DNA from: Rhodoferax sp.
GTDB lineage: Bacteria > Pseudomonadota > Gammaproteobacteria > Burkholderiales > Burkholderiaceae_C
DNA length: 32,000 bases
Direction: 5' to 3'
Assembly: GCA_964203415.1 (NCBI GenBank)
Contig: CAXNME010000002.1
Location: forward strand, 31,961 to 63,960
Shown here: positions 5,725-26,366 of the stretch, piece by piece
Layout: each line of letters opens with the position of its first letter
Numbering within the stretch: the stretch's first letter is position 1
Made by a program: the position numbers and the translations under genes
Notes under the pieces: generated by a model
Databases searched by the model: none
Seen by the model: only the letters and a program-made list of their open reading frames with translations
What the model was told of the DNA's origin: nothing

Positions 5725-8289
5725 TCAAGATCGGGGCTTGGTATTTTCCGGGTCGTACAAAGCGGCGTAACCGACCGCTTCCACTTTGACCGGGTAGACG
5801 TCATCAAAGTACTGGATGTGCAGTTCGCGGCCGACTTGGCAATACGCGTGGGGCAGGTAGGCCAGCGCAATGTTTTTGCCGATGGTCGGGCCAAACGCGA
5901 TGCTGGTGGTGTAGGAGCGCCGGCCTTGGCTGTCGATCAGGGTTTGGCCGGTTGCGGGGTCCATCACCGGCAGGTTGCCCAGCGGGTAGCGGGCCACGCC
6001 GGTGCTGTCGATGTTGTGCGTCATGGTCAGCGTGCACAGGTAGGCTGGTTGGTGTTCGCGTTCGCGGAACTTCAGATGCGCGGCCTTGCCGTGGAAGTCG
6101 GCGGCCTTGACCTTGGGACGCGCGAGATCGCATTCCATCAGGTTGTATTCGGTCAGCAGGTCGCCGTTTTGCAGGCGCAGGCTCTTTTCCATGCGGCGGC
6201 TGTTGGCATAGGTTTCCACGCCCACGGGCGTCACGCCCAGTGCAAACAGCGCGTCCCACAGGGCCAGGCCATCTTCGTACTTGAAGTGCAACTCCCAGCC
6301 CTGCTCACCTACATACGAAATGCGGAAGGCCAGCACTGGCACGCCCGCAATCTTCAGGTTACGAAAAGCGGCGAAGGGAAAGTTCTCATGCGTCCAGGCA
6401 TCGGGCGCATCGGCAATTTTTTGGATGGTGGCGCGGGCATTCGGCCCCCACACGCCCAAGCAACCGTAGGCGGTGGTGGTGTCGGTGACTTTGACGTTCG
6501 CGCCCCGGTCCTGCGCCATGCGCTGTATCCACACCAGGTCGCGGTGACCGGCATCCGCACCGTCGATCACACGGTAGTGGTCCTGCGCCAGGCGCAATAC
6601 GGTCAGGTCGGCGCGCACGCCGCCTTTGGCATCCAGAAAGTGGGTGTACACGCCCTTGCCCACAGGCGTGTCGCCACCCACCTTGGCCACGCAGATGTAC
6701 TCCAGCAGATCGGCGGCATCAGGGCCGACGACGTCGATTTCAGCAAAGTGGGAGACGTTGATCATGCCCACGTCTTCGGTCATTTTGAGGTGCTCAGCGT
6801 TGGATACACGCCAGAAGTGGCGGTTGTCCCATTCGTTGGCGCGCACCGGCACCTTGTCGCCGTAGACCTTGAGTAGATGCTCGTTGCTCGCGTAGCCATG
6901 CGCGCGCTCCCAGCCCGAGAGTTCCATGAAGTAAGCGCCCAGCGCTTTCTCGCGCTCGTAAAACGGGCTCTTGAAGATGCCGCGCCCGGCGCTGTAAGGC
7001 TCGCGGTTGTGCACCGGCGGGTTGTAGATCTTGAAGGCACCCTCGTAGCAGCGGTCGTGGATGTACTGCTCGTCCTGCTGATAGGGGTAAATGCGGGCCA
7101 CGTCGATGCGGGCGTGGTCGATGTGCGTGTAGCCATCGGTCATCCAGTCCGCCACAATTTTGCCCACACCCGGGCCGTCTTTGACCCACACCGCCTCGGC
7201 GTACCACAGGCCGCGCACTTTGGACGATTCACCGATGGACGGGTTGCCGTCGGTCGTCACCTGCAAAAGGCCGTTGAAGGAATATTTGTCGTCATAGCCC
7301 AACTCGGCCAGGATGGGCGTGAGCTCAATCGCGCGCTCAAGCGGTGCCATGATTTGGTCCAGTTCCAGATCGCGCTGCGAAGGCGACAGGCGCGCCTGCT
7401 CTTTTTCCAACAAGTCGCGCGGGTGGCACATGCGCGGGTTTTTCTCTTCGTAATAGCCCCATTCGATCTGGCCGCCCTCCGGCGTTTTGGGGTCACCCGT
7501 ATCCCGCAGATAGGCCGAGTTGCCTTGGTCGCGCAAGAGCGGATAGCCGATGTCTTTGCCGGTGCCCGCAAATTCCAGATAGGGTTTGAAGAAAGTGAGC
7601 GGGTGGTCCACCGGCATGATGGGCAGGTCTTCCCCCGCCATATTGGCAATCAGGCGGCCCCACAGACCGGCGCAGACCACCACGTAATCGGCGGCAATAA
7701 AACCCTTGGTCGTTTCCACGCCCTGGATGCGGCCGTTCTCGATGCGCAGACCGGTACAAGCGGTGTTGGCAAAGGACTGCAGCTTGCCCGACGCAACTGC
7801 CGCATCCACCAGTTCGCCCGCCACCATTTGGGAGCGGGGTTTGACCAAGCCCGCATCCGGGTCCCACAGGGCGCCTTGCACCATGCTCTCGTCGAGCAGC
7901 GGCATTTTGGCCTTGGCCTCAGCCGCGCTGATCAGCTCGACCCGGTTGCCAAAGGCCTTGCCCGAGGCCACGCGGCGTTTGAGCTCCAGCATGCGCTCGT
8001 CGTCGCCGACCCGCGCCACTTCGATGCCGCCAATGCGGTCATAGCGGCCCATCTTGTCGTAGAAGTCGATGCTGTATTTGGTGGTGAAGATCGTCATCTG
8101 ATCGTGCATCGTGTTGAAGCAGAAATCAGAGGCGTGTGCCGTGGAGCCCACATCCGTCGGAATGGCGGACTTGTCGATACCGACAATGTTGTCCCAGCCC
8201 CGTTCAATCAGGTGGTGCACCACCGAGGCGCCGACGATGCCGCCTTGGCCAATGATGACAACTTTGGCGCGTTCAGGAAATTGGGCCAT
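5725..8289 (-). CDS. FAD-dependent oxidoreductase fused to a GcvT-like folate-binding domain (dimethylglycine/sarcosine dehydrogenase family)
   Basis: 854 aa. It has the N-terminal dinucleotide motif KVVIIGQGGIVGASV, a DAO-type domain and a C-terminal aminomethyltransferase-like region (RISYVGEQGWELH...). The long + strand ORFs over it are antisense artefacts of high GC. Confidence 0.9.
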   Translation of the reverse strand: MAQFPERAKVVIIGQGGIVGASVVHHLIERGWDNIVGIDKSAIPTDVGSTAHASDFCFNTMHDQMTIFTTKYSIDFYDKMGRYDRIGGIEVARVGDDERMLELKRRVASGKAFGNRVELISAAEAKAKMPLLDESMVQGALWDPDAGLVKPRSQMVAGELVDAAVASGKLQSFANTACTGLRIENGRIQGVETTKGFIAADYVVVCAGLWGRLIANMAGEDLPIMPVDHPLTFFKPYLEFAGTGKDIGYPLLRDQGNSAYLRDTGDPKTPEGGQIEWGYYEEKNPRMCHPRDLLEKEQARLSPSQRDLELDQIMAPLERAIELTPILAELGYDDKYSFNGLLQVTTDGNPSIGESSKVRGLWYAEAVWVKDGPGVGKIVADWMTDGYTHIDHARIDVARIYPYQQDEQYIHDRCYEGAFKIYNPPVHNREPYSAGRGIFKSPFYEREKALGAYFMELSGWERAHGYASNEHLLKVYGDKVPVRANEWDNRHFWRVSNAEHLKMTEDVGMINVSHFAEIDVVGPDAADLLEYICVAKVGGDTPVGKGVYTHFLDAKGGVRADLTVLRLAQDHYRVIDGADAGHRDLVWIQRMAQDRGANVKVTDTTTAYGCLGVWGPNARATIQKIADAPDAWTHENFPFAAFRNLKIAGVPVLAFRISYVGEQGWELHFKYEDGLALWDALFALGVTPVGVETYANSRRMEKSLRLQNGDLLTEYNLMECDLARPKVKAADFHGKAAHLKFREREHQPAYLCTLTMTHNIDSTGVARYPLGNLPVMDPATGQTLIDSQGRRSYTTSIAFGPTIGKNIALAYLPHAYCQVGRELHIQYFDDVYPVKVEAVGYAALYDPENTKPRS

Positions 8290-8481
8290 GTTTGCGCTTG
8301 CTCCTACAAAAATTGGATATCCGGGGCCGTCCAGCTAGCCCGACAGTGTATTCAGCAGCGCGACCCTGAAGGATGCAATTGCGACTGTGGTTTTCACAAT
8401 GTCGCCAAAGCCGTTGCACAGAGCCAGCGCGCGGACCCCCGCCTAGAATCCCGGCACCTCCCTTATCCAAGTCACTTTTCC

Positions 8482-9708: not shown

Positions 9709-9784
9709 TGGTGGCCTGGGGCGGAATCGAACCACCGACACAAGGATTTTCAATCCTCTGCTCTACCGACTGAGCTACCGGGCC
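9709..9784 (-). tRNA. tRNA-Phe (anticodon GAA), 76 nt with encoded CCA
   Basis: The reverse complement is GGCCCGGTAGCTCAGTCGGTAGAGCAGAGGATTGAAAATCCTTGTGTCGGTGGTTCGATTCCGCCCCAGGCCACCA. It folds as a cloverleaf with D arm GCTC/GAGC, anticodon loop TTGAAAA and T arm GGTGG/CCGCC. Note the C5-A68 and G27-U43 non-Watson-Crick pairs. Confidence 0.95.
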
Positions 9785-9826
9785 AGAGGCGGGATTGTAA
9801 CTGGCAAAACCGCTGTTTCGGGTTCC
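9743..9826. repeat. Island direct repeat, left copy (part of intact tRNA-Phe plus upstream flank)
   Basis: 9751-9809 is identical to 21283-21341 (59 nt). Similarity extends to AGGATTTT (anticodon stem/loop). After an 8-nt indel it continues to TCGGGTTCC (9818-9826 = 21343-21351). Confidence 0.85.
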
Positions 9827-9957: not shown

Positions 9958-11234
9958 GTGAAGCCCACCCAACTCAGCTACCCCACGCCTGACCAACTCA
10001 CGGCTGCACCCGCCACACCCCCCGCACTCGCAAGCACCAAGCTGATCGCCCAGCCACCCCGCAGCCAACTGCACCACCTGCGTGATGGCGCTGTGGTGCT
10101 CTACAAGCGCGAGCGCAGCAGCATTTGGCAGATGCGCTTCAAGCTGTATGACCATGTGTGGCACAGAGCCACCACCCGACACAGAGACCTGGGCTACGCC
10201 CGCCGTGCGGCTGGGGAGATCTACGACAGAGCCAAATTCAAGGAAGAACTGGGCATCCCGCAAACCACCCGCCGCTTTGGCGCTGCCGCAGCGCAGTGCC
10301 TCGTGCAACTGGAGGCTGAGATTGCGCAGGGCTTGCGCCCCATGACCAACAGGGACTACCAGCGGGTGATCCGCAAATACCTGGTGCCGTTCTTTGGCAA
10401 ATACAACCTCACCAGCATTGATGCCAAGCTGGTGCGGGAGTTTGAGATCTGGCGCAACCAGCAGATTGGACACATGCCCATCGCCAGCACACTGGCAACC
10501 CACTGCGCTGCCTACAACAGAGTGATTGAAGTGGCAGTTGAGCAGGGCTGGCACAGCGCCCAGTCCAATATCGCACGGCTCAGCAGGCGCGGTGCCAAAA
10601 GCCGCGCACGACCTGGCTTTACCACCGCAAGAGATTGACCAACTGCTGGCTTTCATGCCTGCTTGGTGCGAGGGTGGGCACAGACACACAGGTAGGCAGA
10701 TCAAGCTGTTGCTGCGGGACTATGTGGAACTGCTGCTCACCACAGGCATGCGCTGCGGCAAAGAAAGCATGAACATGCTGTGGCAGCACATTGAATGGCA
10801 CACGGATCAACGAGCAACGCTATCTGCGCATCTGGGTATCAGGCAAAACAGGCGGCAGGTGGTTGATTGCCAAACACAGAGCAGCGTCAGCACTGGAACG
10901 ACTGGCACAGCGCCAGCGCAGTGTGAGCATGAGCCTGCCAGACGCAATAGCGGCAAAGCTGCCCCAACGGGTATTCACCTTGGACGATGGCTCACAGCCC
11001 TATGGCTTGGCTGGCACTTTCCAGCGCATGTTGGCAGCGGCAGGACTCAGCCGAGACATGAGCACTGGGCAGCAACGAACCTTGTATAGCCTGCGGCACA
11101 CCTACGCTACGATAGAACTCATGTCAGGCACGGACATCCATACGCTGGCGCGGCAGATGGGCACCAGTGTGATCATGCTGGAGCGGCACTATTCCAAGCT
11201 CACCGCAACCATGGCGGCGCAGCAGTTGGCTTGA
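9958..11234 (+). pseudogene. Tyrosine (phage-type) integrase with two frameshifts
   Basis: Three overlapping ORFs (9958..10638, 10526..11089, 10791..11234) join into one ~425-aa integrase. The shifts lie near 10620-10630 (..RPGFT|PQEIDQLLAF..) and near 10806 (..IEWHT|INEQRYLRIWVSGKTGG..). The C-terminus carries LRHTYAT...GTSVIMLERHYSK (catalytic H-x-x-R and Tyr box). Confidence 0.85.
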
Positions 11235-11255
11235 GCGGGTGGGGGTGGCTCTTGG

Positions 11256-11274
11256 GTGTCGTGTTGAACGACAC
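11256..11274. repeat. Island palindrome copy H1: GTGTCGT-GTTGA-ACGACAC
   Basis: Perfect 7-bp arms, 21 nt after the integrase stop codon. Confidence 0.9.
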
Positions 11275-11444
11275 TCAAAAGCCGCGCCACGCATGGGCAC
11301 GGCTTTGGCGCTTACACGGCAACATTTAAAGAAGCAAGGCTAAGAACGAACATCAACGCCACTGGCAAGGCGCTGGGCTGGGGCGAGTGAAGATAATGTT
11401 GCACGCCGTCGGTAAAAAAACTCAACCAGATGGAGGGAACCTAA

Positions 11445-11648
11445 TCAATTTTTCTTTTTGAAAAAAGTCCTATAAATCAATGTCCCAACTGCATAAAGAG
11501 TGACCAATGAAAAAATCACGAGCACGATTATTTCTGTCTCTGTCAGTTGCTCCGGAAACATGGTGACATGTTCATAGGTAGTGATGAATGTATTGATTAC
11601 AGGATTTTCTTCCCTATATTTCAAGTATGCCGCTCCGCCATCCATCAT
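11445..11648 (-). CDS. Small hypothetical membrane protein (67 aa) in low-GC insert 1
   Basis: ORF with one C-terminal hydrophobic helix (IIVLVIFSLVTLYAVGTLIY) followed by a KKKN tail. It is AT-rich, unlike the host. I have no homology support. Confidence 0.35.
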   Translation of the reverse strand: MMDGGAAYLKYREENPVINTFITTYEHVTMFPEQLTETEIIVLVIFSLVTLYAVGTLIYRTFFKKKN

Positions 11649-11773
11649 TTACTCCTAAAAATACTTATTCATTACGCACCCTACTCGCTTTGCAAGTATC
11701 TACTCATCACTGGCGAAAAAATCCCTAAAGATTTTATGGTTGCTTCTTATTCCGCGGTGTAAGTCCCCAGCTC

Positions 11774-12007
11774 TACGGCTTGGCTGGCACTTCCCAGCGC
11801 ATGTTGGCAGCAGCAGGACTCAGCCGAGACATGAGCACTGGGCAGCAACGAACATTGTATAGCCTGCGACACACCTACGCTACGATGGAACTCATGTCAG
11901 GCACGGACATCCACACGCTGGCGCGGCAGATGGGCACCAGTGTGATCATGCTGGAGCGGCACTACAGCAAACTCACTGCCACCATGGCGGCGCAGCAGTT
12001 GGCTTGA
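11774..12007 (+). pseudogene. Orphan 3' fragment of a second, related integrase gene
   Basis: ~232 nt that are ~94-95% identical to 11003-11234. It encodes ...LYSLRHTYATMELMSGTDIHTLARQMGTSVIMLERHYSKLTATMAAQQLA, the same C-terminus as the full integrase. No upstream part of the gene is present. Confidence 0.85.
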
Positions 12008-12027
12008 ATGGGGGGTGGCGTTGTTGG

Positions 12028-12046
12028 GTGTCGTTTCACACGACAT
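12028..12046. repeat. Island palindrome copy H2: GTGTCGT-TTCAC-ACGACAT
   Basis: It sits at the same distance after the integrase-fragment stop as H1 does after the full gene. However, the 5-nt centre has the opposite polarity (TTCAC is the reverse complement of GTGAA), and there is one arm mismatch. Confidence 0.85.
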
Positions 12047-12411
12047 TTTATTGAAGGTGCCCACCGAAAGACCACCTTAGTTGTCGGTCGAGATCCAGTG
12101 TTGCACTTAGTGGTTGATCCGCCTTGTTAAAAATCGCCCTCAGCACCATTTTGACGCTGACAGAAAATACAGTCTCAAAGGTATGCACAATTAGACAACC
12201 ACCTTCAAAGTCACCGCTTCTTATTTAAACGAATCGTACTTATGGTTGGTATCTGAAAACCTTTCCGTTTCTCTCAAGACCAATCAATTCTCACGCGAGG
12301 AATATCTGAAGCAATCAAATTTTTGCAAGGTAGATAAGATGCTAACTACAATTTAAATTTAACAGCTTAATCAATTCAGTCATGATATGTAATCATCCAC
12401 TGATGTGAAAC

Positions 12412-13695
12412 TCAATGAATCATTGAAAACTCAACAAGATACACCGCGGCACCTGCAAAATAACCAACTAATGCTAAGCCACTAATGTTTTTGAGATACC
12501 AAACGAAGTCAATTTTTTCAAGACCCATTGCAGCAACACCAGCAGCAGAACCAATTATCAAAATAGATCCACCAGTTCCTGCGCAATAAGCCAAGAACTC
12601 CCAAATAAAGCTATCTGGCGGGTATTGTTCAAGGCTATACATGCCCATAGAAGCCGCGACTAGAGGAACGTTATCAACAATGGCACTCACTAAGCCAATA
12701 AGCATAACAATGGCATCCAGTCTCCCCACTGTAACATCGAGCCATTTAGCTACAGAACTTAATATATTAGTATGTTCTAAAGTTGCGACAGCAAGCAGGA
12801 TACCAATAAAGAAAACAATTGATGACATGTCAATGCGAGAAAGTGCATGAGACAAGTCCAAATGGTTCCGCGCTTCAAATGACTTATCTTTATGTAATAA
12901 ATCACCCACTAGCCAGAGCAGTCCTAAACCCAACAAAACCCCCATAAATGGGGGTAAATGTGTAAAAGTCTTAAAAGCAGGAACGGCAATAAGCACGCCC
13001 AAACCCAAGTAAAACATAATGTTGCGCTCACTCACAGTACTGGCAAAATGGTTATTACTGGCAACCTGCTGGGGAGGGACAACAGGCTTTGCCCGCAACA
13101 TCCAGCTGGTTATCAGAAGCGGGAAAGCTAGATTAACAAGGGATGGAAGAATTAAAGCCTTTACTATTTCTGTAGCGGTCACTTGACCGCCAATCCACAG
13201 CATGGTGGTTGTGACGTCACCAATAGGCGACCAAGCACCCCCCGCATTGGCCGCAATCACAATCATTCCTGCGAAAAACAAACGGTCATCACGCTTATCT
13301 AGCAGCTTTTTCATGAGTGATACCATAACAATCGCGGTTGTTAAGTTGTCAAGGATTGCACTCAAGAAAAATGTTACCACGCAAACAATCCACATAAGTG
13401 TGGCCAAGCTGGTGGTTTTGATTTTAGAAGTGACAACATCAAAGCCGTCGTGAGCATCGACAACTTCTACAATTGTCATTGCCCCCATCAAGAAAAATAC
13501 TATCTGTGCCGTACTGATGAGTGTCTCACCCAACTCCTCATTGAGTACATGCAGGTCTGGTGATGCAACCGCATAGATAGACCAAAGCAAACCCGCGCCT
13601 AGCAAAGCAGATGCCGATTTGTTTATCTTGATTGGATGTTCAAATGCGATTGCTGCATACGTAACAACAAAAACTATAATCAGTATTGTAGTCAT
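12412..13695 (-). CDS. nhaD: NhaD-type Na+/H+ antiporter (ArsB/NhaD permease superfamily)
   Basis: 427-aa polytopic protein. Motifs IAANAGGAWSPIGDVTTTMLWIGGQ and VDNVPLVAASMGMY resemble NhaD antiporters. The gene is AT-rich (low-GC insert 2) and intact. Confidence 0.8.
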   Translation of the reverse strand: MTTILIIVFVVTYAAIAFEHPIKINKSASALLGAGLLWSIYAVASPDLHVLNEELGETLISTAQIVFFLMGAMTIVEVVDAHDGFDVVTSKIKTTSLATLMWIVCVVTFFLSAILDNLTTAIVMVSLMKKLLDKRDDRLFFAGMIVIAANAGGAWSPIGDVTTTMLWIGGQVTATEIVKALILPSLVNLAFPLLITSWMLRAKPVVPPQQVASNNHFASTVSERNIMFYLGLGVLIAVPAFKTFTHLPPFMGVLLGLGLLWLVGDLLHKDKSFEARNHLDLSHALSRIDMSSIVFFIGILLAVATLEHTNILSSVAKWLDVTVGRLDAIVMLIGLVSAIVDNVPLVAASMGMYSLEQYPPDSFIWEFLAYCAGTGGSILIIGSAAGVAAMGLEKIDFVWYLKNISGLALVGYFAGAAVYLVEFSMIH

Positions 13696-13806
13696 TTTGG
13701 TGATGTAGATGTAGATGAAGCCTAGTCGGGTGACATTACTCTTTGTTATAATATAGCATAAATTTACATCAATGAAAAATCCCTGTGAGTCAAAAGGGCA
13801 TACACA

Positions 13807-14331
13807 ATGTCAATATCTGCTAAGTCAATTCGAGCTTTTTACGACCGTCAAGTAGGCTGGCGTAAAAAATTCTATCTTTATCTTTTTTGCGTTTATCTCC
13901 CAATTTGCGCAGTAATGTCTTTCGAGATGAAGATACCTCCTGTTGGTGGTCTGCTGATTGAAAACAATTTGAGATCAGCTCTCGATAAACAACACATCGC
14001 GACCGAAGTAAGCATCTATACAGATGTAGATATGGATTTACCAATCCAACAAACAGATACAACCTTAAAAGAAATGATAAAAGGTGATGACAAAAACAAA
14101 GTGATTGTTCTTGATACGATTGGAAAAAAATGGGTTTATTGGCTAGTCTTGGGTGACGGAGTAACAAATGAAACCCGTGATTACGTCATATCCACCGCAA
14201 CGGAGCAAATCAAAAGTACTTACCGTTTAGAATATTTAAAAGAGCTTTTTACTTACTTAATAGCATCCACTCTTCTGGCAATCATCGCTTATATATTTGG
14301 AGTATTTTTAGAAAATCTTGGTAAAAAATGA
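13807..14331 (+). CDS. Hypothetical membrane-anchored protein (174 aa)
   Basis: ORF in low-GC insert 2 with an N-terminal TM (FYLYLFCVYLPICAVM) and a C-terminal TM (LIASTLLAIIAYIFGVFL). I recognise no family. Confidence 0.45.
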   Translation: MSISAKSIRAFYDRQVGWRKKFYLYLFCVYLPICAVMSFEMKIPPVGGLLIENNLRSALDKQHIATEVSIYTDVDMDLPIQQTDTTLKEMIKGDDKNKVIVLDTIGKKWVYWLVLGDGVTNETRDYVISTATEQIKSTYRLEYLKELFTYLIASTLLAIIAYIFGVFLENLGKK

Positions 14332-14614
14332 ACGAATACTATAAATGCGTAATTCATAATAATTTTTTTAATTGCATGGAAAATATTTTGGTTTTATGTC
14401 CGAGACAATACGCTTGAATTGAGTCGCTTCACCCGCGCATTCAAATGCACGGCTTTTGCACTGCCTATGGGCACCACATTCAAGCGATGTCCTACGCATA
14501 GGAGGCTGCGTTAAAAGGAAAGGAAGCCGACGAGGATGACCTTAAGACGGAATAATCTTTATTACGACAACGCGAAATGAACCATTCGAATCATTAAATG
14601 GCTCACTCCTTTAA

Positions 14615-14633
14615 GTGTCGTGTGAAACTACAC
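14615..14633. repeat. Island palindrome copy H3: GTGTCGT-GTGAA-ACTACAC
   Basis: One arm mismatch (T at 14629). It is followed by a duplicate of the ATPase 3' end. Confidence 0.85.
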
Positions 14634-14716
14634 TGCCTTGGCTGGCACGCCGCACCCGAAGTGCCAATGTGATGACCGCGCTCTTGATCTGCCTTGCGCT
14701 GCTCATTGCACGGCGT
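14634..14716 (-). pseudogene. Orphan duplicate of the 3' end of the AAA+ ATPase gene
   Basis: TGCCTTGGCTGGCACGCCGCACCCGAAGTGCCAATGTGATGACCGCGCTCTTGATCTGCC... matches 15327-15408 with a few substitutions and a 2-nt indel. Confidence 0.7.
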
Positions 14717-14783
14717 GAGGAGGACTGGTGGGCGCTAACCCATTCTGAAATTTCGTTTTAAGCAGCTAGCGCGGCGTATAGAC

Positions 14784-14813
14784 GAAAAAAAACCCGCCGT
14801 TTTAAGGAGCGGG
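14784..14813 (-). terminator. Rho-independent terminator after the 101-aa gene
   Basis: The minus strand reads CCCGC-tccttaaaac-GGCGGG followed by TTTTTTTT, 8 nt after the stop at 14821. Confidence 0.65.
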
Positions 14814-14820
14814 AATTTTA

Positions 14821-15126
14821 TTATTGAATGCCACGCGCGAACTTTGATTTTCTGCTTACGGTCAAATACAGCTCGCTGTATTCGTAATGGCAGCCATACA
14901 TGGCAGCGAAAGTATTTCCGTGTTCGCTAACGACCTTGTGAATTCCTGCCAGACTTGAGATTTCTACGCGTATTATTTTTTCGAACATGTAAGTAGCCCG
15001 TCCTTCCTCTGCGTTAAAGCTGTAGCGCCCACCCAATTGTTTCGCAATGTTCTCCAGTGTCTTTGCACTGGCGTCTGCGAAAAACAAGTCAAAGCCGCGC
15101 ACCAAAGCCAATTCTTTCGAGTCCAT
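14821..15126 (-). CDS. Hypothetical protein (101 aa) in low-GC insert 3
   Basis: Intact AT-rich ORF with its own terminator. I recognise no family. Confidence 0.5.
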   Translation of the reverse strand: MDSKELALVRGFDLFFADASAKTLENIAKQLGGRYSFNAEEGRATYMFEKIIRVEISSLAGIHKVVSEHGNTFAAMYGCHYEYSELYLTVSRKSKFARGIQ

Positions 15127-15303
15127 ACAATTTCCTCTGTGTTATTTGACGCCAGCGATTGATGCCAATCGCTGGCTGTTGATATCAAGCCGTGTGATTG
15201 ACAGCGTGAGTCAGAAGACCAATCTGTCTCACGCCGTCAGCCATCTATTTCTTTGCCGCTGGTTCAGCTGCCACCTAAATGAACCCTCAAATGGTTCGCT
15301 GAT

Positions 15304-15997
15304 TTAGGTGTCGTGTGAAACGACACTGCCTTGACTGGCACGCCGCACCCGAAGTGCCAATGTGATAACCGCGCTCTTGATCTGCCGTGCGCTGCCATTG
15401 CACGGCGTGATCACCGCTGCCAGTTGTGCATCACTCACGCCACCCACACCCGCATGGGCAAGGATGCGCCGCGCCAGCGGCAACCAACGCTCTGCGGGTG
15501 CTGCGTTGAACGGGATGCAGTGGCAGCGATCCCGCACGCCAGATTCAATGGCAGTGAAGTCGTTGGTGGTCAGCACCCACGCCGTGCGCGCGTTGGTTCA
15601 TCACGGACTTCAGGATCGCCATGGCGTCCTTGTTCAGTTGATCCACCTCGTCCAACACGAAGTAACGATACTTGCCCTGCGGCATCAGAATGGCTGCGTT
15701 GGCTATATGAGTGACCATCTTCAAGCCATTGGCGCCTGGCTGCACCCGCACATACATCTCGCCAGCACTCATGCCCCCATCGCGCTGCCTCTATGGCATC
15801 AGGCAATAGTTTCGCCAACGCACTCTTGCCAGTGCCAGGGATGCCATACAGCAAGATGCCGCATTTGCCCTCAGTGATGGGAAATGGATGCTGACTCGTG
15901 ATCAGATCCTGAATGAAATCCCTTGTGCTGCTGCGCTGGAAAATGCAATGTCATCCAAGCACTTGGGACCAAAACGCTCCTCAAAATCGTCGAACAT
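15304..15997 (-). pseudogene. AAA+ ATPase (clamp-loader/RFC-like Walker A/B protein) with at least three frameshifts
   Basis: ATG at 15997 behind GAAGGAGAAC. The pieces in different frames are MFDDFEERFGPKCLDDI..., ..RSSTRDFIQDLITSQHPFPITEGKCGILLYGIPGTGKSALAKLLPDAIE (Walker A), ..KYRYFVLDEVDQLNKDAMAILKSVMN (Walker B), and ..LTTNDFTAIESGVRDRCHCIPF... The shifts are near 15940, 15795-15810 and 15580. Confidence 0.75.
15308..15326. repeat. Island palindrome copy H4: GTGTCGT-GTGAA-ACGACAC
   Basis: Perfect copy. It overlaps the last codons of the ATPase reading frame (..QGSVVSHDT*). Confidence 0.9.
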
Positions 15998-16062
15998 ATA
16001 GTTCTCCTTCAAATCAAGGTTGATCAAACAACGGGGCAGCGATGGCACTGCCCCGTGTGGCT

Positions 16063-16798
16063 TTAGGCTGGCACTGCTTCAGTAATCACCGCAGTGGCAG
16101 TGGCGGCTTGGATCGCAGCGTCCTTGCTGTCTGCTCTGCTGCTCTCCTGTGCCTGCGCTGCCTGTTGCTTGGCAGCATCACGCACCTCGCCGTGGTGGCT
16201 GGCAAGAGCCGCGTTCAGCGCAGTGGCGCTTTCCACCACTGCCTGCACCACCACAGAGCCGTCAGCCTGCCAAACGCCAATCAGCACCGTCTGTGTGCCA
16301 GCCTTGGCAACATCGTTGAACGAGCCGCTGAGTGCTGCGCTGCTGAACACGCCCATGTTCTTGTATGCCAGCACGCTGCTGGTCACCAGCGCCTTTTGTT
16401 TGGCGCTCATGGCGTTGGGTGCCTTGGCAAGGCGCACTTCCTCCACACCACCCGCGTCGCGGATGAACCGCGCCACATCCATGATGCCCACACCTTGTGC
16501 CAGCGCAGAGCGCAGCACGATGCTGTAGGCGCTCACGCGGCGGCGATCGCTGCCAAACACGCACTTGACGATGCGGGTCAAGGTGTGGGTGCTGGGCGGA
16601 GAACACATGCCCTTTGAGGCTGATGTAGGAGCGCAGCCCTTCGCGCAGCGCCTTTGCCTCTGCAGAGTCTTCGCACATGGCTTTGTAGAGCCCGTAGCAG
16701 CGTTGCAGCAAGCCATACAACTGCTCGTTGCTGGTGCGAAAGGCGTTTTCTTGCCAGACTTCACGCTCCAACACCAGTTGTTCGATGCTGGCGTGCAT
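16063..16798 (-). pseudogene. Hypothetical island protein (~245 aa) with a frameshift near 16597
   Basis: MHASIEQLVLEREVWQENAFRTSNEQLYGLLQRCYGLYKAMCEDSAEAKALREGLRSYISLKGHVFS (the frame of 16262..16798) continues as ..STHTLTRIVKCVFGSDRRRVSAYSIVLRSALAQGVGIMDVARFIRDAGGVEEV.. (the frame of 16063..16854). There is an extra C in a C-run. The true start may be the ATG at 16924 (see findings). Confidence 0.55.
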
Positions 16799-16835
16799 TG
16801 CCTTATGACCCTGGGCAAGGGTTTCGCCGTTTGGG

Positions 16836-16854
16836 GTGTCGTGTGAAACGACAC
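16836..16854. repeat. Island palindrome copy H5: GTGTCGT-GTGAA-ACGACAC
   Basis: Perfect copy (8-bp arms if the flanking G/C are included), 38 nt upstream of the ATG at 16798. Confidence 0.9.
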
Positions 16855-17172
16855 CTTGCTGCGGCGGGGTTGGTGGATGCCTCTGTGGATTGCAGGGCGG
16901 CGACGGGGCTGGCGATAGTTTGCATTTGATTTCTCCTTAAATGCAGGTTTAAAAAGACCGCATCTCTGCAGCCATCTTCACATCGCAAGTGCTTGTTTTT
17001 GCTTGCATTTTGTGTCGATGGATGGACTTTATCCATATCCTAATTACTTGTCGCTATCCACACAAATTGAAGATTATTTGTGGTAATGTTTATTGGTAAA
17101 TTACTTACTATCTGTAATCTCATTTATTCATTTGATTGCCATTTATCTTTTATTCGTGCTATCCTTTTTGGC

Positions 17173-18147
17173 ATGGATGACCAAAACGACCTCCACCCCC
17201 TGCAACTCAAGGAACTGCCCTCCACGCTGCGCCGTCGCCCACCACTGAATCCCGTGGTGATCCGTGAGATGAACGAGGAAAGGGCTGAGGAATCCCGCAA
17301 GGCACGCAACACTTGGTATTGGGTTTGGTATGAGTGCCTACGCTTGAGCGAGGACTACCAACGCTGCTGCAAGAACAACGGCAAGGGGCGGCTGCGCCAT
17401 GTGTATCAGGACTTTGGGGATGTGTGCAGGAAGCCATTTCCCATTTGGTGGCGCAGCACGGGCAGATACCTTTTTGCAGAGCAGAAGTCTGTGCCCGTGG
17501 TGCAGTGCTACACCAAGACCCATGAAATGGACGACATTGGCAGTCTGCGCGGCAAGATCTTGATTGAAGTGCCTTTGAACCTGCGCAAGGCAACTGCGGT
17601 GCGCCAGATCAACAAGATCCTCAAGACCGCGTATGAAGGTCGCGAGGTGATCCCACGCGAACAAAGCACCGCACGGCGGCGATTGGTCAAGAGCAAGTTG
17701 CGCCTGCCCACTGCCAAGATGATGCTGCGGCTATATGAACTGCGCCAGCGCAAGCCAGAACTCACGCTGTGGCAACTGGGTGAGGCAGCAGGGGTTGAAC
17801 TGAACTTGTATGCCCGCACCCAAGAGCCTGTGATACTGAGCGTGCAGGAAGAGCGCACACGCATGAACATCGCTGTGAGCAGGTATTTACGCCAAGCCCG
17901 CGAATTGATCACCAATGCCACAGAAGGCGTGTGCCCCAGCATCAAAGCCTTTTGCCAATCAGGTGCTCACAGCCGACGATGCCGTGGAATCTGTTCCGAA
18001 TGGAACAACTGCACGAGGATGACACCAGCGAGTGAAGTGTCGTTCAACACGACACCCCACGACCTTGCTGAGCAGTCAAACCAGTTCCACCGCCCGCCGC
18101 TTCATGTCGTCATTCACGGAAATATATTTTTGGGTGGTAGAAATTGA
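17173..18147 (+). CDS. Hypothetical protein with probable C-proximal helix-turn-helix
   Basis: ATG at 17173 follows a 240-bp AT-rich region. The sequence is ..NTWYWVWYECLRLSEDYQRCC.. and ..RKPELTLWQLGEAAGVELN.. (HTH-like). The last ~60 codons look like read-through (Cys/Arg-rich, crossing palindrome H6 and overlapping the convergent recombinase), so the true stop may be earlier or in another frame. Confidence 0.5.
   Translation: MDDQNDLHPLQLKELPSTLRRRPPLNPVVIREMNEERAEESRKARNTWYWVWYECLRLSEDYQRCCKNNGKGRLRHVYQDFGDVCRKPFPIWWRSTGRYLFAEQKSVPVVQCYTKTHEMDDIGSLRGKILIEVPLNLRKATAVRQINKILKTAYEGREVIPREQSTARRRLVKSKLRLPTAKMMLRLYELRQRKPELTLWQLGEAAGVELNLYARTQEPVILSVQEERTRMNIAVSRYLRQARELITNATEGVCPSIKAFCQSGAHSRRCRGICSEWNNCTRMTPASEVSFNTTPHDLAEQSNQFHRPPLHVVIHGNIFLGGRN
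18037..18055. repeat. Island palindrome copy H6: GTGTCGT-TCAAC-ACGACAC
   Basis: Perfect arms. The centre is the reverse complement of the H1 centre. It lies 20 nt beyond the stop codon of the small recombinase gene. Confidence 0.9.
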
Positions 18148-18651
18148 TCTTGTGCCCTGCCAGGCTTGCCAGCACAAACACACTGATGCCCTGTGACTTG
18201 CCAATGAGGTCAAAAAGGTCTTGCGACCGCTGTGGCTGCTGGCATTGCTGATGCCAGCGCGGCGATACAGCCAAAAGAAGTGCTGCGACAGGGTGTTGGC
18301 GCTGAAGCCGCGTCGCGGTCCCCTGTGTGTGTAGAACAAAGGCTGGGTTGGCTCATGCCAAGTGCGTGAGCCCACATACGCAGCAAGTTCTGCCTGTAGC
18401 CGTGTGCTCACATACACCGTCCTGGCATAGCCATGCTTGACCCTGTGGCTTGCCAAGTAGATCTCGCTCTTGATCGACCCATCACGATTACGCACATCCG
18501 CCAGGGTCAAATCTGCCACTTCCCCCACGCGAAGCCCTGCCATGACCGTGACCAGCAACATCACGCGATTACGCACAGCATGCGGGCGAGCAGCGATGTA
18601 GGTCAGGGCGGTTTCCAGTTCTGCGGGGGTGAGTGATTTGGCTGCTGTCAT
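18076..18651 (-). CDS. Small (~191 aa) catalytic-domain-only tyrosine recombinase
   Basis: ATG at 18651 behind GGAGAA. It has AGLRVGEVADL (Arg I), SSHSGRKTF (H-x-x-R) and STTQKYISV (Tyr). The segment between them is locally out of frame; the alternative frame reads LIGKSQGISVFVLASLAGHK. Confidence 0.8.
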   Translation of the reverse strand: MTAAKSLTPAELETALTYIAARPHAVRNRVMLLVTVMAGLRVGEVADLTLADVRNRDGSIKSEIYLASHRVKHGYARTVYVSTRLQAELAAYVGSRTWHEPTQPLFYTHRGPRRGFSANTLSQHFFWLYRRAGISNASSHSGRKTFLTSLASHRASVCLCWQAWQGTRSISTTQKYISVNDDMKRRAVELV

Positions 18652-18982
18652 CTTGCGTTCTCCAATAAGTTGATGCGTTTTTAGTATGTGATCTTTGTGG
18701 GGGCGAGGACAACCGAAACCCGCCACTTTGGCGGTGTATTCGTGATCTGTTCGATTTCAACGACTTACGCTGCCTCGATAGGAGTTCAACTGAACTCTTT
18801 GTTCGCGTATTTATCCAAGTCAGCAGTGGGCTGCTGGAATACTCAGTGGCAAAAAGCACAGCAAGCCCTACAAGCGCAGCAGCGCCCCTCTCGCTACCCA
18901 AGCCAGCACACACGGGGCTTGCGCTGCACACAGGGCGGATTTGAGGCGTGGCTGCGCTGACGCACTGCAAATCAGCCCCGCG

Positions 18983-19420
18983 TCATCCCCCGTGCGCTGG
19001 CTTTGAGTGTGGGCTTGTCTGCGTCCTGCGCGGGCACTTGTTGGGGCGGCTGCACGGGTATTTGTGTGGTAGACGCCCTGTGCCACAGTGCCAACGGGAG
19101 TTTGAGGCTCTGGCGCTGGGTAGCCCGCAGCACTGGGCGCAGGATTGGCTGCAGGGTTTGGTGCTGCCTGAGGTGGCAGCACTTGCTTTGGCACTTGGCT
19201 GCAGGCTGCGGGCATTGCCACGGGCTTGGGTCTTGGTGGCGTGCGTGGCGCGGGCTTTTTGGTGCGGCTGGGCTTGCGGCTCTTTGGCGCGAGCAGCCCG
19301 TTCCTGTTTGGCACGCTCTTGCGCCTCTGCCTGCTGCTGTAGTGCAGCCCAGGTGTTGTCGCTGATGACCTTCCACATGCCCAGCGCGGTTTGGGCGTCT
19401 TCGATCTCAGAGATACGCAT
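18983..19420 (-). CDS. Hypothetical protein; C-terminal half ambiguous between two frames
   Basis: The N-terminus MRISEIEDAQTALGMWKVISDNTWAALQQQAEAQERAKQERAARAKE is plausible and lies 40 nt downstream of the preceding gene. After ~60 aa, both this frame and the overlapping Pro-rich frame (18868..19548) are open, so a frameshift is possible. Confidence 0.35.
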   Translation of the reverse strand: MRISEIEDAQTALGMWKVISDNTWAALQQQAEAQERAKQERAARAKEPQAQPHQKARATHATKTQARGNARSLQPSAKASAATSGSTKPCSQSCAQCCGLPSARASNSRWHCGTGRLPHKYPCSRPNKCPRRTQTSPHSKPAHGG

Positions 19421-19462
19421 GGCTGTGCTCCTTGCTTGGCTTGGATGTGTTGGATGTGTGGT

Positions 19463-19972
19463 TCATGCCCATGTCTCCAAGTCTGTGTTGGTAGCCAGCA
19501 ACTGGGGTGAGTTCTTGCTGGAATGGGCGAGACGGCAGTTGCGCACATCCAACTTCCACGCCTCCTCCACTTCTGCCTCTGCGTCCAAGATCGCCAAGGT
19601 CAGCGCCTTGTCATTGGGGTGGAACACGCACACGCCATCTACTGGGGTCTTGTGTTTGGTCAGTGGGTCATATCGCTGCACCCAACTGAACAAGGCGTGG
19701 GGTTGGTCTTCTACGGATTCCAGCACCATCATCTGCTGGTCTGTGCGGGCTTGGTGTGCCCATTCTTCATACGAGAACAGGTCGATCAGGTATTTGACCT
19801 TGGGGGCTTTGAGATCTACGGTGCCGTTGTACACAGCCCGTCGATACAAGCCTTTGCCGTAGGTGGTTCCGTAGGCTTGGTTCTCAAACAAGCGCACTGC
19901 CACGCTGGTGGGTGGGTAAGAGATGAGGTTCAGGTTCAGCGCAGGCGTGCGCTCGATATCGCGGTTCAGCAT
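19463..19972 (-). CDS. Hypothetical protein (169 aa)
   Basis: ATG at 19972 behind AAGGAGA. Composition is balanced. I recognise no family. Confidence 0.55.
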   Translation of the reverse strand: MLNRDIERTPALNLNLISYPPTSVAVRLFENQAYGTTYGKGLYRRAVYNGTVDLKAPKVKYLIDLFSYEEWAHQARTDQQMMVLESVEDQPHALFSWVQRYDPLTKHKTPVDGVCVFHPNDKALTLAILDAEAEVEEAWKLDVRNCRLAHSSKNSPQLLATNTDLETWA

Positions 19973-20118
19973 AAGTTTCTCCTTGTGTTGCTGTAGGAGT
20001 TGCGCGGTTGCTGCTGTGTTGCGGAAGGTCGCACCTGGGGTCTCAGGTGTTGCTCCAAGTCGCAGAAGCCAAAAGATGTCTCGCGTAGCGGGTTGCTGGT
20101 TGCCTGTTTCCAGTCAGG

Positions 20119-20214
20119 GCTACTCATTTGTGCCCAATGTCGCAACTAGCAACATGCGACGCTTTTCTATCTCGCTACTCATTAGCAACTCCATAGCAAC
20201 TCATCGCAACTCGC
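20119..20214. repeat. Iteron-like cluster, consensus (A/C)GC(A/T)ACTC
   Basis: Four tandem units with 10-11 bp period: GCTACTCAT (20174), AGCAACTCCAT (20184), AGCAACTCAT (20195), CGCAACTCGC (20205). Related copies occur at 20119 (GCTACTCAT), 20141 (CGCAACTAG) and 20148 (AGCAACATG). All lie in the 433-bp divergent intergenic region. Confidence 0.6.
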
Positions 20215-20285
20215 AAATATTTATCTCTCGGCAAAGAAAGGCGTAATAAATCAGCGGTATTTGTTGGGGTTTTGGCAAAACTGAG

Positions 20286-20304
20286 GTGGCGTTTAACACG
20301 ACAC
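20286..20304. repeat. Island palindrome copy H7 (degenerate): GTGGCGT-TTAAC-ACGACAC
   Basis: One arm mismatch (GTGGCGT vs GTGTCGT) plus a variant centre (TTAAC vs TCAAC), i.e. two substitutions relative to H6. It shares the right flank CCTTGC with H5. Confidence 0.6.
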
Positions 20305-20405
20305 CTTGCGATGTCCCGCCAATCTGGCGGGTGATCGATCGACCAGAAACGGTGGTCGGATCACATACTTGTCTGTGCTTTATCAACAACTGAAAGGAAA
20401 AGCAC

Positions 20406-21271: not shown

Positions 21272-21316
21272 AGGATTTTTTTCAATCCTCTGCTCTACCG
21301 ACTGAGCTACCGGGCC
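21272..21316 (-). pseudogene. Displaced 5' fragment of tRNA-Phe (positions 1-42, expanded anticodon loop)
   Basis: The reverse complement GGCCCGGTAGCTCAGTCGGTAGAGCAGAGGATTGAAAAAAATCCT lacks the variable loop, T arm and 3' acceptor strand. Confidence 0.85.
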
Positions 21317-21351
21317 AGAGGCGGGATTGTAACTGGCAAAAATCGGGTTCC
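21272..21351. repeat. Island direct repeat, right copy
   Basis: See the left copy. It contains AGGATTTTTTTCAATCC (T7 versus T4 in the intact gene). Confidence 0.85.
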
Positions 21352-26197: not shown

Positions 26198-26274
26198 GTC
26201 AGAGGCTCCAAAAAACAAGTTTTGATAACCACCGTGACCAGCCTGGAGAGAGGGACTCACCACACAAGACATCC

Positions 26275-26366
26275 GTGGGTGAGCGCAGTTGAAACATGCA
26301 AAGGCGCTAGGCCTCTGTACCCCGAGCCTCATCCACATTGCGTGAACTGCATCGCTCCTCAGAGTG
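26275..26366 (-). promoter_or_regulatory. SAH (S-adenosylhomocysteine) riboswitch in the ahcY leader
   Basis: The minus-strand RNA is CUCUGAGGAGCGAUGCAGUUCACGCAAUGUGGAUGAGGCUCGGGGUACAGAGGCCUAGCGCCUUUGCAUGUUUCAACUGCGCUCACCC. The GAGGAGCG, (C/G)AGGCUCGG and AAC(N)GCGCUCAC blocks match the SAH riboswitch core. A TAGAAT -10-like box lies at 26372-26377 (minus). Confidence 0.8.

Follow-up and report, generated by a model that had tools for sequence, protein, structure and literature searches.

Why should a small genomic island carry one 19-bp palindrome over and over at the boundaries of its genes and modules, and what might read it? The question is raised by a 32,000-nt stretch of a Rhodoferax sp. 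contig (GenBank assembly GCA_964203415.1, contig CAXNME010000002.1, positions 31,961 to 63,960 of the forward strand; hereafter the window), which holds seven copies of the sequence GTGTCGT-N5-ACGACAC (H1 to H7 from left to right). All seven lie within an island of 11.5 kb bounded by a perfect 63-nt direct repeat, with the gene order integrase, low-GC cargo, AAA+ ATPase, F5, F1, a 191-aa recombinase, F7, F8 and DUF6641 (coordinates in Table 1). The core genes of the family to which this island belongs encode a P4-like integrase, a clamp-loader-like AAA+ ATPase, three proteins of unknown family, an Xer-like recombinase and a DUF6641 protein. We propose that the palindromes are the sites of an island-encoded dimer that would insulate or silence the island operons, a reading to which we assign a probability of about 0.4. 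We infer the binding of a protein, its identity and its effect on transcription from the confinement, position, spacing and symmetry of the sites, which are taken in turn below.

A motif search allowing up to two mismatches recovered the seven copies, each with at most one mismatch (four perfect, three with one), compared to an expectation of 0.13 copies and a maximum of one in dinucleotide-preserving shuffles of the window. The cluster is real and far from chance: allowing three mismatches added no site anywhere in the 32 kb, including the roughly 20 kb of chromosomal flanks, and the half-site GTGTCGT is found at just two places beyond the island (1172 and 8618), close to the 2.9 expected by chance. 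A first-pass annotation, made from the letters of this stretch, had listed the same seven positions and had reported nothing but chance half-sites in the flanks; in both respects it holds. It had also described the motif as island-specific, situated at module boundaries and previously undescribed, and all three descriptions stand. We found no earlier account of the motif or of its island family, both of which we regard as uncharacterised; literature searches on DUF6641, on the motif strings and on Limnohabitans islands returned nothing relevant.

The motif is confined to this island family beyond the window as well. Searched against 185,579 species, one genome each, the pattern GTGTCGTGTKRAACGACAC gave 17 stretches with an exact match, roughly the number expected by chance. 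Eleven of the 17 lie in freshwater Betaproteobacteria (Comamonadaceae, Limnohabitans, Rhodoferax, Burkholderiaceae, Methylophilaceae), and these 11 loci are relatives of the window island, with 1–5 copies each (at up to two mismatches) and varied centres. No representative genome had more than one matching stretch, thus the motif is not a genome-wide repeat of the repetitive extragenic palindrome (REP) type. The earlier suggestion of a REP-like hairpin family that came in with the island, and with it the REP/bacterial interspersed mosaic element (BIME) class as a whole, fails on this count, on the absence of copies from the roughly 20 kb of window flanks, and on family searches of the island proteins, which found no Y1_Tnp/HUH match of the kind expected for a REP-associated tyrosine transposase (RAYT). 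A DNA uptake sequence (DUS/USS), which would be over-represented throughout the genome of a competent host, was likewise rejected, the motif being confined to the island. Three relatives (L020, L022 and L025; L numbers denote loci of the related set), read with about 10 kb on each side, held no perfect or one-mismatch copy outside the island and its cargo region, and a scan of IMG/VR viral contigs gave no match. The related set comprises 108 loci plus the window (914 kb; 80 of the loci were reached through F1), and over it a generalised pattern finds 287 sites compared to 2–7 in shuffles.

The palindrome recurs at the same places in islands with 70% DNA identity or less. The site between F1 and the recombinase lies 3–12 nt past the F1 stop and 17–20 nt from the convergent recombinase stop; another lies within F5, about 160–240 nt upstream of the F1 start; further sites recur at the AAA stop, past the integrase stop, about 100 nt upstream of DUF6641 and between cargo genes, and some lineages have an additional site upstream of the recombinase. 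The H7 position is kept in L001, L002, L018, L007, L011, L017 (the island of the isolate Limnohabitans sp. DCL3, NZ_CP171842.1) and L025. Placements read earlier from the window alone proved correct, namely H4 at the ATPase stop (the AAA gene ends ...SVVSHDT*), H5 in the 5' coding region of the next gene (F5), H6 just past the stop of the small tyrosine recombinase (20 nt) and H7 upstream of the 146-aa gene (101 nt to the DUF6641 start). H6 and H1 together form a perfect 22-nt inverted repeat.

The site is independent of coding frame and of terminators. Its offset to the AAA stop codon varies (-21, -9, +8, +14 to +24), and canonical terminators in relatives stand beside the site or 45–60 nt beyond it. 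In F5 it lies in frame within a disordered N-terminal leader (predicted local distance difference test, pLDDT, below 50), which at H5 reads VVSHDT in intact relatives, the frame in the window being shifted by a 1-nt insertion just upstream. The F5 site encodes VVxNDT in canonical islands and VQQLDA in islands with GCGTCC-type sites, which indicates selection on the DNA rather than on the peptide and rules out a conserved peptide motif VVxNDT as the source of the similarity.

Spacing and symmetry of the site

The distance between the two arms is nearly invariant. TGTCGT and ACGACA are separated by five nucleotides in 210 sites, by four in none, by six in one and by seven in three. The general form of the site is GYGTC-N9-GACRC and the canonical form GTGTCGT-KTNAM-ACGACAC, often with a weak outer extension CAAG/CTTG that is clear in the variant lineages (27 bp in all, CAAG-GTGTCGTGTTACACGACAC-CTTG); the right flank CCTTG that had been noted beside several window copies is the right half of this extension, real but weak. 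In islands with F1 proteins of about 45–50% identity, the arms have the same sequence at five or more of the places where the site recurs. The centre is variable yet dyad-symmetric (consensus K-T-N-A-M), positions 9 and 11 being T and A in 56 of 122 distinct sites and positions 8 and 12 complementary in 62 of 122, and this symmetry thus covers positions 9 and 11, which are unable to pair in a hairpin. The centre was originally reported in both polarities, and both are seen, but polarity carries no detectable information because the centre varies among relatives at each homologous position. An exchange within the arms that flips the centre, proposed at the same time, is superfluous as an explanation since the centres simply vary.

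Divergent lineages have symmetric variants of their own, in 2–4 copies per locus, with arms of the forms GCGTCTAG-TTA-CTAGACGC, GCGTCGCT-TAA-AGCGACGC, GCGTCC.. and GTGTCCA-N5-TGGACAC. Changes at positions 2/18, 6/14 and 7/13 are symmetric, with a pair score of 0.358 compared to 0.158 in shuffles, a count with a built-in bias, since the sites had been selected as palindromes. The type of site follows the F5/AAA cluster across all loci; in L029 and L030 an AAA–F5 module has GCGTCC-type sites at both ends, and the F1/recombinase junction keeps a slightly degraded canonical site.

A sub-variant, GTGTCGG-TTSAA-CCGACAC (the symmetric change T7G/A13C), is found in L020 (1986, 3370, 13306) and in L014 (219, 6542), with the right flank cctgaacctagg common to L020 13306 and L014 219. 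It brackets a HupE/UreJ cargo pair in L020 and also occurs on a contig binned as Cryomorphaceae, for which mis-binning or transfer is possible.

Rigid spacing, conservation of sequence beyond mere pairing, symmetry at central positions that cannot pair and symmetric lineage variants together argue for sequence-specific recognition of the DNA duplex by a symmetric protein, and against a generic hairpin or a terminator. We propose that the site is read by a dyad-symmetric (dimeric) DNA-binding protein encoded in the island family. One site stands at each boundary of a transcription unit: after the integrase, at the end and near the start of the F5–AAA operon, between the convergent F1 and recombinase genes, upstream of DUF6641 and around the cargo. 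Once bound, such a protein might insulate or silence the island operons, either by keeping transcription from running into or out of modules or by repressing promoters nearby, an effect that we would liken to that of the L5-type stoperators and of the twelve KorB operators of RK2. Three options were originally put forward for the motif (core sites of a recombinase, a REP-like family, and operators of an island DNA-binding protein); the operator fits best, although the protein then named as a possible reader, at 17173 (F1), has no recognisable helix-turn-helix (HTH) or known fold. The first candidate for the binder is F5, because the type of site co-varies with the F5/AAA module, and the small recombinase and F1 are the next candidates since the site between them is the most persistent copy. 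LexA, ParS and LysR-type boxes were considered and dropped, as no island protein supports them.

Several points weigh against an operator read by an island protein. No HTH, ParB or repressor family was detected among the island proteins in family and fold searches, F1, F5, F7, F8 and DUF6641 had no informative family match, models of F1 and F5 had no significant fold match in the PDB, and no promoter in the window could be linked to any site. Physical linkage confounds the association between site type and the F5/AAA module. The mosaics L029 and L030 combine two site types, and one trans-acting factor for both would need either to accept each type or to recognise the outer GYGTC alone. A few lineages have single copies with N8, N10 or N12 spacing at the F1/recombinase junction, and symmetric double changes and extended stems (up to 18 bp, L077) are equally hairpin-like.

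Less probable readings: module exchange, hairpins and external readers

The alternative that survives best is that the palindromes are the core (crossover) sites of the small Xer-like recombinase, with inverted 6–7-bp arms around an AT-rich overlap of 5–7 bp, at which modules would be inserted, deleted or swapped within the same island or between co-resident islands in the manner of dif modules or integron cassettes. We regard this as possible, though doubtful. GC-rich inverted arms around an AT-rich centre are the architecture of a core site for a tyrosine recombinase. In most loci of the canonical type the most persistent copy is 17–20 nt from a recombinase gene that is catalytically complete, and sites bracket the cargo region. 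Among 246 ends of blocks with at least 85% identity, 39 lie within 15 nt of a site compared to 5.5 for random positions, clustered in three site zones, and some block boundaries begin at the first base of the site (L025 against L041; L031 against L011). However, the site zones are also the only operon boundaries, thus an enrichment of breakpoints is expected anyway, and many block pairs count one event again. Two independent insertions at the F1/recombinase junction, one of 750 nt in L041 and one of 638 nt in L007 (the latter a lipoprotein-like gene that L018 shares), have a full or half site on both sides, but other insertions have one site (L077) or none (L066), and the same module was not found in two contexts among the loci.

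Order and orientation also speak against exchange at the sites. The first-pass annotation had proposed looking for inversions in related islands, and across about 50–70 loci per gene both order and orientation are constant (AAA in 51 of 51, F5 in 61 of 61 and the recombinase in 72 of 77), with no inversion or alternative order, and no site-bounded inverted block among locus pairs with at least 85% identity; 24 contigs of one population (identical F1) share one arrangement. A shufflon or other invertible-segment system (Rci, Fim type) was rejected on these grounds, all site-bounded segments being in one orientation only, as was an invertible switch between H5 and H6 or between H4 and H5, for which no alternative orientation was found. 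In the mosaics L011, L029, L030 and L031, one of about six block ends lies at a site; F1 is 91–96% and the recombinase 95–98% identical among them, compared to 36% for F5 and 25% for AAA between L011/L031 and L029/L030. The recombinases of L030 and L011 are 98% identical, yet the two loci have different site types at AAA–F5. The copies within one island have different centres, as do the two that flank the L041 insertion, which would block conventional strand exchange, and some copies lie within essential coding sequence. The duplications in the window each have one native and one arbitrary end, as from deletions. What stands of the original suggestion of recombinase core sites is therefore the enrichment of breakpoints and the two site-flanked insertions, whereas cassette capture and shufflon-like inversion find weak support at best. 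We consider it unlikely that the sites are the crossover sites of a catalytic-domain-only recombinase and form with it a self-contained module-exchange system in the chromosomal islands of freshwater Betaproteobacteria, in which sites lying in frame within coding sequence could let modules be swapped and leave the genes unbroken. If true, this would be a third system of site-bounded gene modules, besides integrons and the dif modules of Acinetobacter, and a new way for environmental bacteria to assemble gene modules.

It is improbable that the palindromes act as hairpins, whether in single-stranded DNA during island replication or transfer or in mRNA (as 3'- or 5'-end stabilisers, I-shaped bidirectional terminators or processing sites), their likeness being due to common descent or gene conversion and not to recognition by a protein. 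Each copy does fold to a 7–11-bp stem (-8 to -24 kcal/mol), about half of ten folds lie clearly beyond shuffles (z of -3 or lower), some copies have stems extended to as much as 18 bp, and a few lineage-specific copies have other loop lengths. The symmetric changes at 2/18, 6/14 and 7/13 would be compensatory in a stem, although this is the biased count given above, and many copies lie just past the stops of convergent genes, where one palindrome could serve both transcripts. However, the loop length is nearly fixed (N5 in 210 sites, any other in four), the sequence of the arms and not just their pairing is kept across islands with about 50% protein identity, and the symmetry reaches the unpairable positions 9 and 11. 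Single-arm mismatches have no G-U bias on either strand (judged by eye), copies also lie in a 5' coding region and upstream of genes, and the motif has no Rfam family match, an Rfam scan of the window at the gathering score having found only tRNA-Phe and an S-adenosylhomocysteine (SAH) riboswitch. No U-tract follows the stems and real terminators adjoin the sites. An intrinsic (Rho-independent) terminator was rejected for want of a T-run, none of the seven window copies being among terminator-like sites, and a boxB/nut-like RNA hairpin because loop polarity does not consistently match the direction of transcription and the centre is often symmetric.

Finally, the sites could be read by a factor from outside the island, either the regulator of a helper element (phage, integrative and conjugative element or plasmid), as with the AcaCD boxes of SGI1-type islands, which are read by a helper-element regulator, or a host protein. 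In favour of this, none of the island proteins could be matched to the site, and a single island can have sites of two types. The family also lacks recognisable genes for transfer or packaging and may therefore depend on a helper. Yet the motif was not found in IMG/VR viral contigs, the island proteins have no relatives in plasmid or phage collections (F5 gave no tblastn match in either), the chromosomal flanks hold no copy, and the lineage-specific variants follow the island modules; we consider an external reader very unlikely.

Gene content and probable decay of the window island

Table 1. Palindrome copies, genes and other features of the island and its surroundings, in window coordinates
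Feature	Position	Strand	Remark
H1, perfect, centre GTTGA	11256..11274		22 nt past integrase stop
H2, 1 mismatch, centre TTCAC	12028..12046		After 251-nt duplicated integrase 3' fragment; native int–H junction, second copy
H3, 1 mismatch, centre GTGAA	14615..14633		Followed by 69-nt AAA 3' fragment; native H–AAA junction, second copy
H4, perfect	15308..15326		Encodes AAA C-terminal VVSHDT; stop codon after 1 nt
H5, perfect	16836..16854		In F5 N-terminal leader coding region
H6, perfect	18037..18055		1 nt after TGA that ends F1 in relatives; 20 nt from recombinase stop
H7, 1 mismatch	20286..20304		101 nt upstream of DUF6641 start
tRNA-Phe	9709..9784	-	
Left 63-nt direct repeat (att)	9747..9809		Overlaps 5' half of tRNA-Phe
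Right 63-nt direct repeat (att)	21279..21341		Perfect match to left copy
P4-like tyrosine integrase	9958..11234	+	Split over three reading frames (pseudogene or assembly error)
Truncated second integrase 3' end	11768..12018	+	93% identical to 10995–11245
Second-copy low-GC cargo	12047..14614		CitMHS-family transporter 12412–13695 (-), 174-aa ORF 13807–14331 (+)
Truncated AAA 3' end, second copy	14634..14702	-	Within 115-nt repeat 14588–14702, 90% identical to 15281–15395
Clamp-loader-like AAA+ ATPase	15304..15998	-	Frameshifted
F5, unknown family, about 290 aa in relatives	16063..16921	-	Frameshifted in window
F1, unknown family, about 325 aa in relatives	17173..18035	+	Divergent and frameshifted near 3' end
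Small tyrosine recombinase, 191 aa	18076..18651	-	Xer-like catalytic domain only; R..HxxR..H..Y residues present
F8, unknown family, 169 aa	19463..19972	-	Weak precomputed PF23343 match in relatives
DUF6641 protein, 146 aa	20406..20846	+	Family assignment
SAH riboswitch	26274..26366	-	Rfam RF01057, 47 bits; chromosomal flank, unrelated to island

H1 to H4 bracket the low-GC segments of the island, as originally noted and as borne out by the G+C profile of the window (lowered and uneven across the island region) and by its repeats, and H1 and H2 do follow homologous integrase ends. The duplications concerned (251 nt at 93% identity, 115 nt at 90%) each have one native site end and one arbitrary end. 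A native layout is seen in L070, a 91%-identical relative, where the integrase stop and a site are followed by about 50 conserved nt and the cargo, and these by about 45 conserved nt that are the AAA 3' untranslated region (UTR), a second site and AAA. The window segment 11768–14702, consisting of the integrase fragment, H2, the transporter cargo, H3 and the 69-nt AAA fragment, mirrors both ends of this layout, and is flanked on the left by integrase, H1 and partial cargo and on the right by partial cargo, H4 and AAA. Given the native order and a collapse of tandem copies, the simplest reading of this stretch is that H1 to H4 are probably the native integrase–site and site–AAA junctions of three island copies in tandem that two deletions have fused. 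Cassette capture was rejected as the source of the duplications because each has one native and one arbitrary end and together they match the L070 layout. A remnant like that in the window, with integrase, site, integrase fragment and site, occurs in L013. In L059, direct repeats of about 430 nt (8038–8470 and 16159–16618, 75–100% identical in segments) flank the island and span the 3' end of a porin gene, a terminator, two palindromes at a distance of 57 nt and the AAA 3' end, which indicates a tandem second island copy. Double sites 57–58 nt apart are found in L059, L020 and L033.

The integrase, AAA, F5 and F1 genes are all frameshifted while the flanking chromosomal genes look intact, thus the window island is either a decaying remnant or a poorly assembled stretch. 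Its bounding repeat includes the 5' 38 nt of tRNA-Phe. The att repeat thus takes in the 5' half of the tRNA gene and a further 25 nt upstream of it, whereas the 3' end would be usual, and the integrase gene points away from the intact tRNA-Phe. In L001, a 95%-identical relative of the right half of the window, a different AAA gene and a canonical terminator replace F1 and H6 (L001 411–1140 against window 17173–18075), homology beginning exactly at the recombinase stop.

Other conserved features adjoin individual sites. A hairpin CCCGCC-AATCT-GGCGGG in the DUF6641 leader (20316–20332, 12 nt to the right of H7) is found at the same place in L001, L011, L025 and L030, and is kept even where the palindrome has drifted (L029, L030). 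Just left of H7, in the divergent F8/DUF6641 region, iteron-like direct repeats AGCAACT (20120–20215; 3–5 copies with a 10–11-nt period) lie beside an AT-rich stretch, possibly as a replication origin or an array with a regulatory role. Upstream of the F5 start, the leader (16922–17010; also L031, L039, L082 and L096) is conserved across divergent islands and holds the paired segments catcgca...tgcgatg and gaccgca...tgcggtc, where another lineage has GACATGTCGTC; it may be a structured 5' UTR or an operator. One lineage has an apparent tiny open reading frame (ORF) for a membrane-like peptide of about 25–37 aa between the F1 stop and the palindrome (L077 4480–4640, L068 7435–7590, L066 1500–1560), and in L077 a perfect inverted repeat of 39 nt, an extension of the palindrome, takes in the stop codon of this ORF.

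Searches of Pfam, PHROGs, NCBIfam and PADLOC named only the AAA protein and the recombinases among the island core proteins, the PADLOC matches being generic AAA matches; porin and beta-lactamase matches belong to cargo or flanking genes and not to the core. F1 has 165 homologues and F5 more than 1000, all unnamed and without Pfam domains and mostly from metagenome assemblies. The AlphaFold model of F1 is all-alpha (predicted template modelling score, pTM, 0.79) and that of F5 has a pTM of 0.47; neither had a Foldseek match in the PDB at E of 0.001 or below, and the top match for F5, a TetR-type regulator, was not usable (E = 0.29). Profile searches with F5, F8 and DUF6641 against PDB sequences gave nothing below E = 0.2. 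F8 was rejected as a rolling-circle Rep or RAYT protein, the alignment having no HUH motif and the only match being weak and precomputed. The island recombinases are 188–191 aa long, and an exact look-up of the window recombinase sequence gave zero matches.

Dispersed sites of other mobile elements

The island family can be searched for by a simple marker, several copies of the form GYGTC-N9-GACRC within about 10 kb. This marker reveals small integrative islands, widespread and undescribed, in bacteria that are abundant in lakes (Limnohabitans, Rhodoferax, other Comamonadaceae and Methylophilaceae); the cargo of these islands includes genes for transporters, porins and metal homeostasis. Almost none of the core proteins has a known family or fold, and the site provides a handle on the function of these proteins, be it as binder or in silencing, insulation or recombination.

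REPs occur in hundreds of copies genome-wide and are paired with a RAYT transposase. The island motif is similarly a short conserved palindrome just past stop codons, but is confined to one island family. The attC sites of integrons are 57–141 nt long and imperfect, with extrahelical bases and RYYYAAC/GTTRRRY boxes, and require a full-length IntI of about 320 aa with an IntI-specific insertion; their cassettes are promoterless and co-oriented. The island sites resemble them in having conserved outer boxes around a variable, self-complementary interior, at the ends of cargo genes and with a tyrosine recombinase gene nearby. In contrast to attC, however, they are 19 bp long and usually perfect palindromes with GTGTCGT/ACGACAC arms, the cargo lies on both strands with several genes between sites and promoter-like sites within it, and the island recombinase scores 40.8 bits against the integron-integrase model TIGR02249, compared to a cut-off of 265. 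The pdif sites of Acinetobacter plasmids (28 bp, 11-6-11) have distinct XerC and XerD arms and are acted on by the host XerCD (PMC6449649, PMC13141974). As in the islands, several sites of recombinase type bound gene modules of mosaic elements, with the centre in both orientations; unlike pdif, the island site is 7-5-7 (or 6-7-6) with identical arms, its putative recombinase is domain-minimal and island-encoded, and the evidence for movement of modules is weak.

The closest parallels concern regulation. Stoperators of L5-type (cluster A) mycobacteriophages are 13-bp asymmetric sites, bound by a monomeric repressor and oriented with transcription (PMC9283540, PMC6550527). Like the island sites they are many copies of one short element-confined site, mostly at gene or operon boundaries and far from promoters, with a consensus that differs between element lineages. 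Unlike them, the island site is a 19-bp palindrome without orientation, in a chromosomal island and not a phage. The 13-bp operator OB of RK2 (IncP), of which there are twelve on the plasmid, is read by the ParB-family CTPase KorB, one element-encoded dimer that silences genes at a distance (PMC11790492). It too is a palindrome dispersed over one mobile element, at promoters, within genes and at gene ends, but no ParB-like protein is detectable among the island proteins. Element-confined copies at operon boundaries, away from promoters, place the island sites with this class of dispersed operators, as does a consensus that co-varies with element lineage, although the latter is confounded by linkage. 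The palindrome would then be the family-specific form of a dispersed mobile-element recognition site, in islands whose core proteins are almost entirely uncharacterised, and if it is an operator, silencing of the stoperator kind would extend from phages and plasmids to chromosomal islands.

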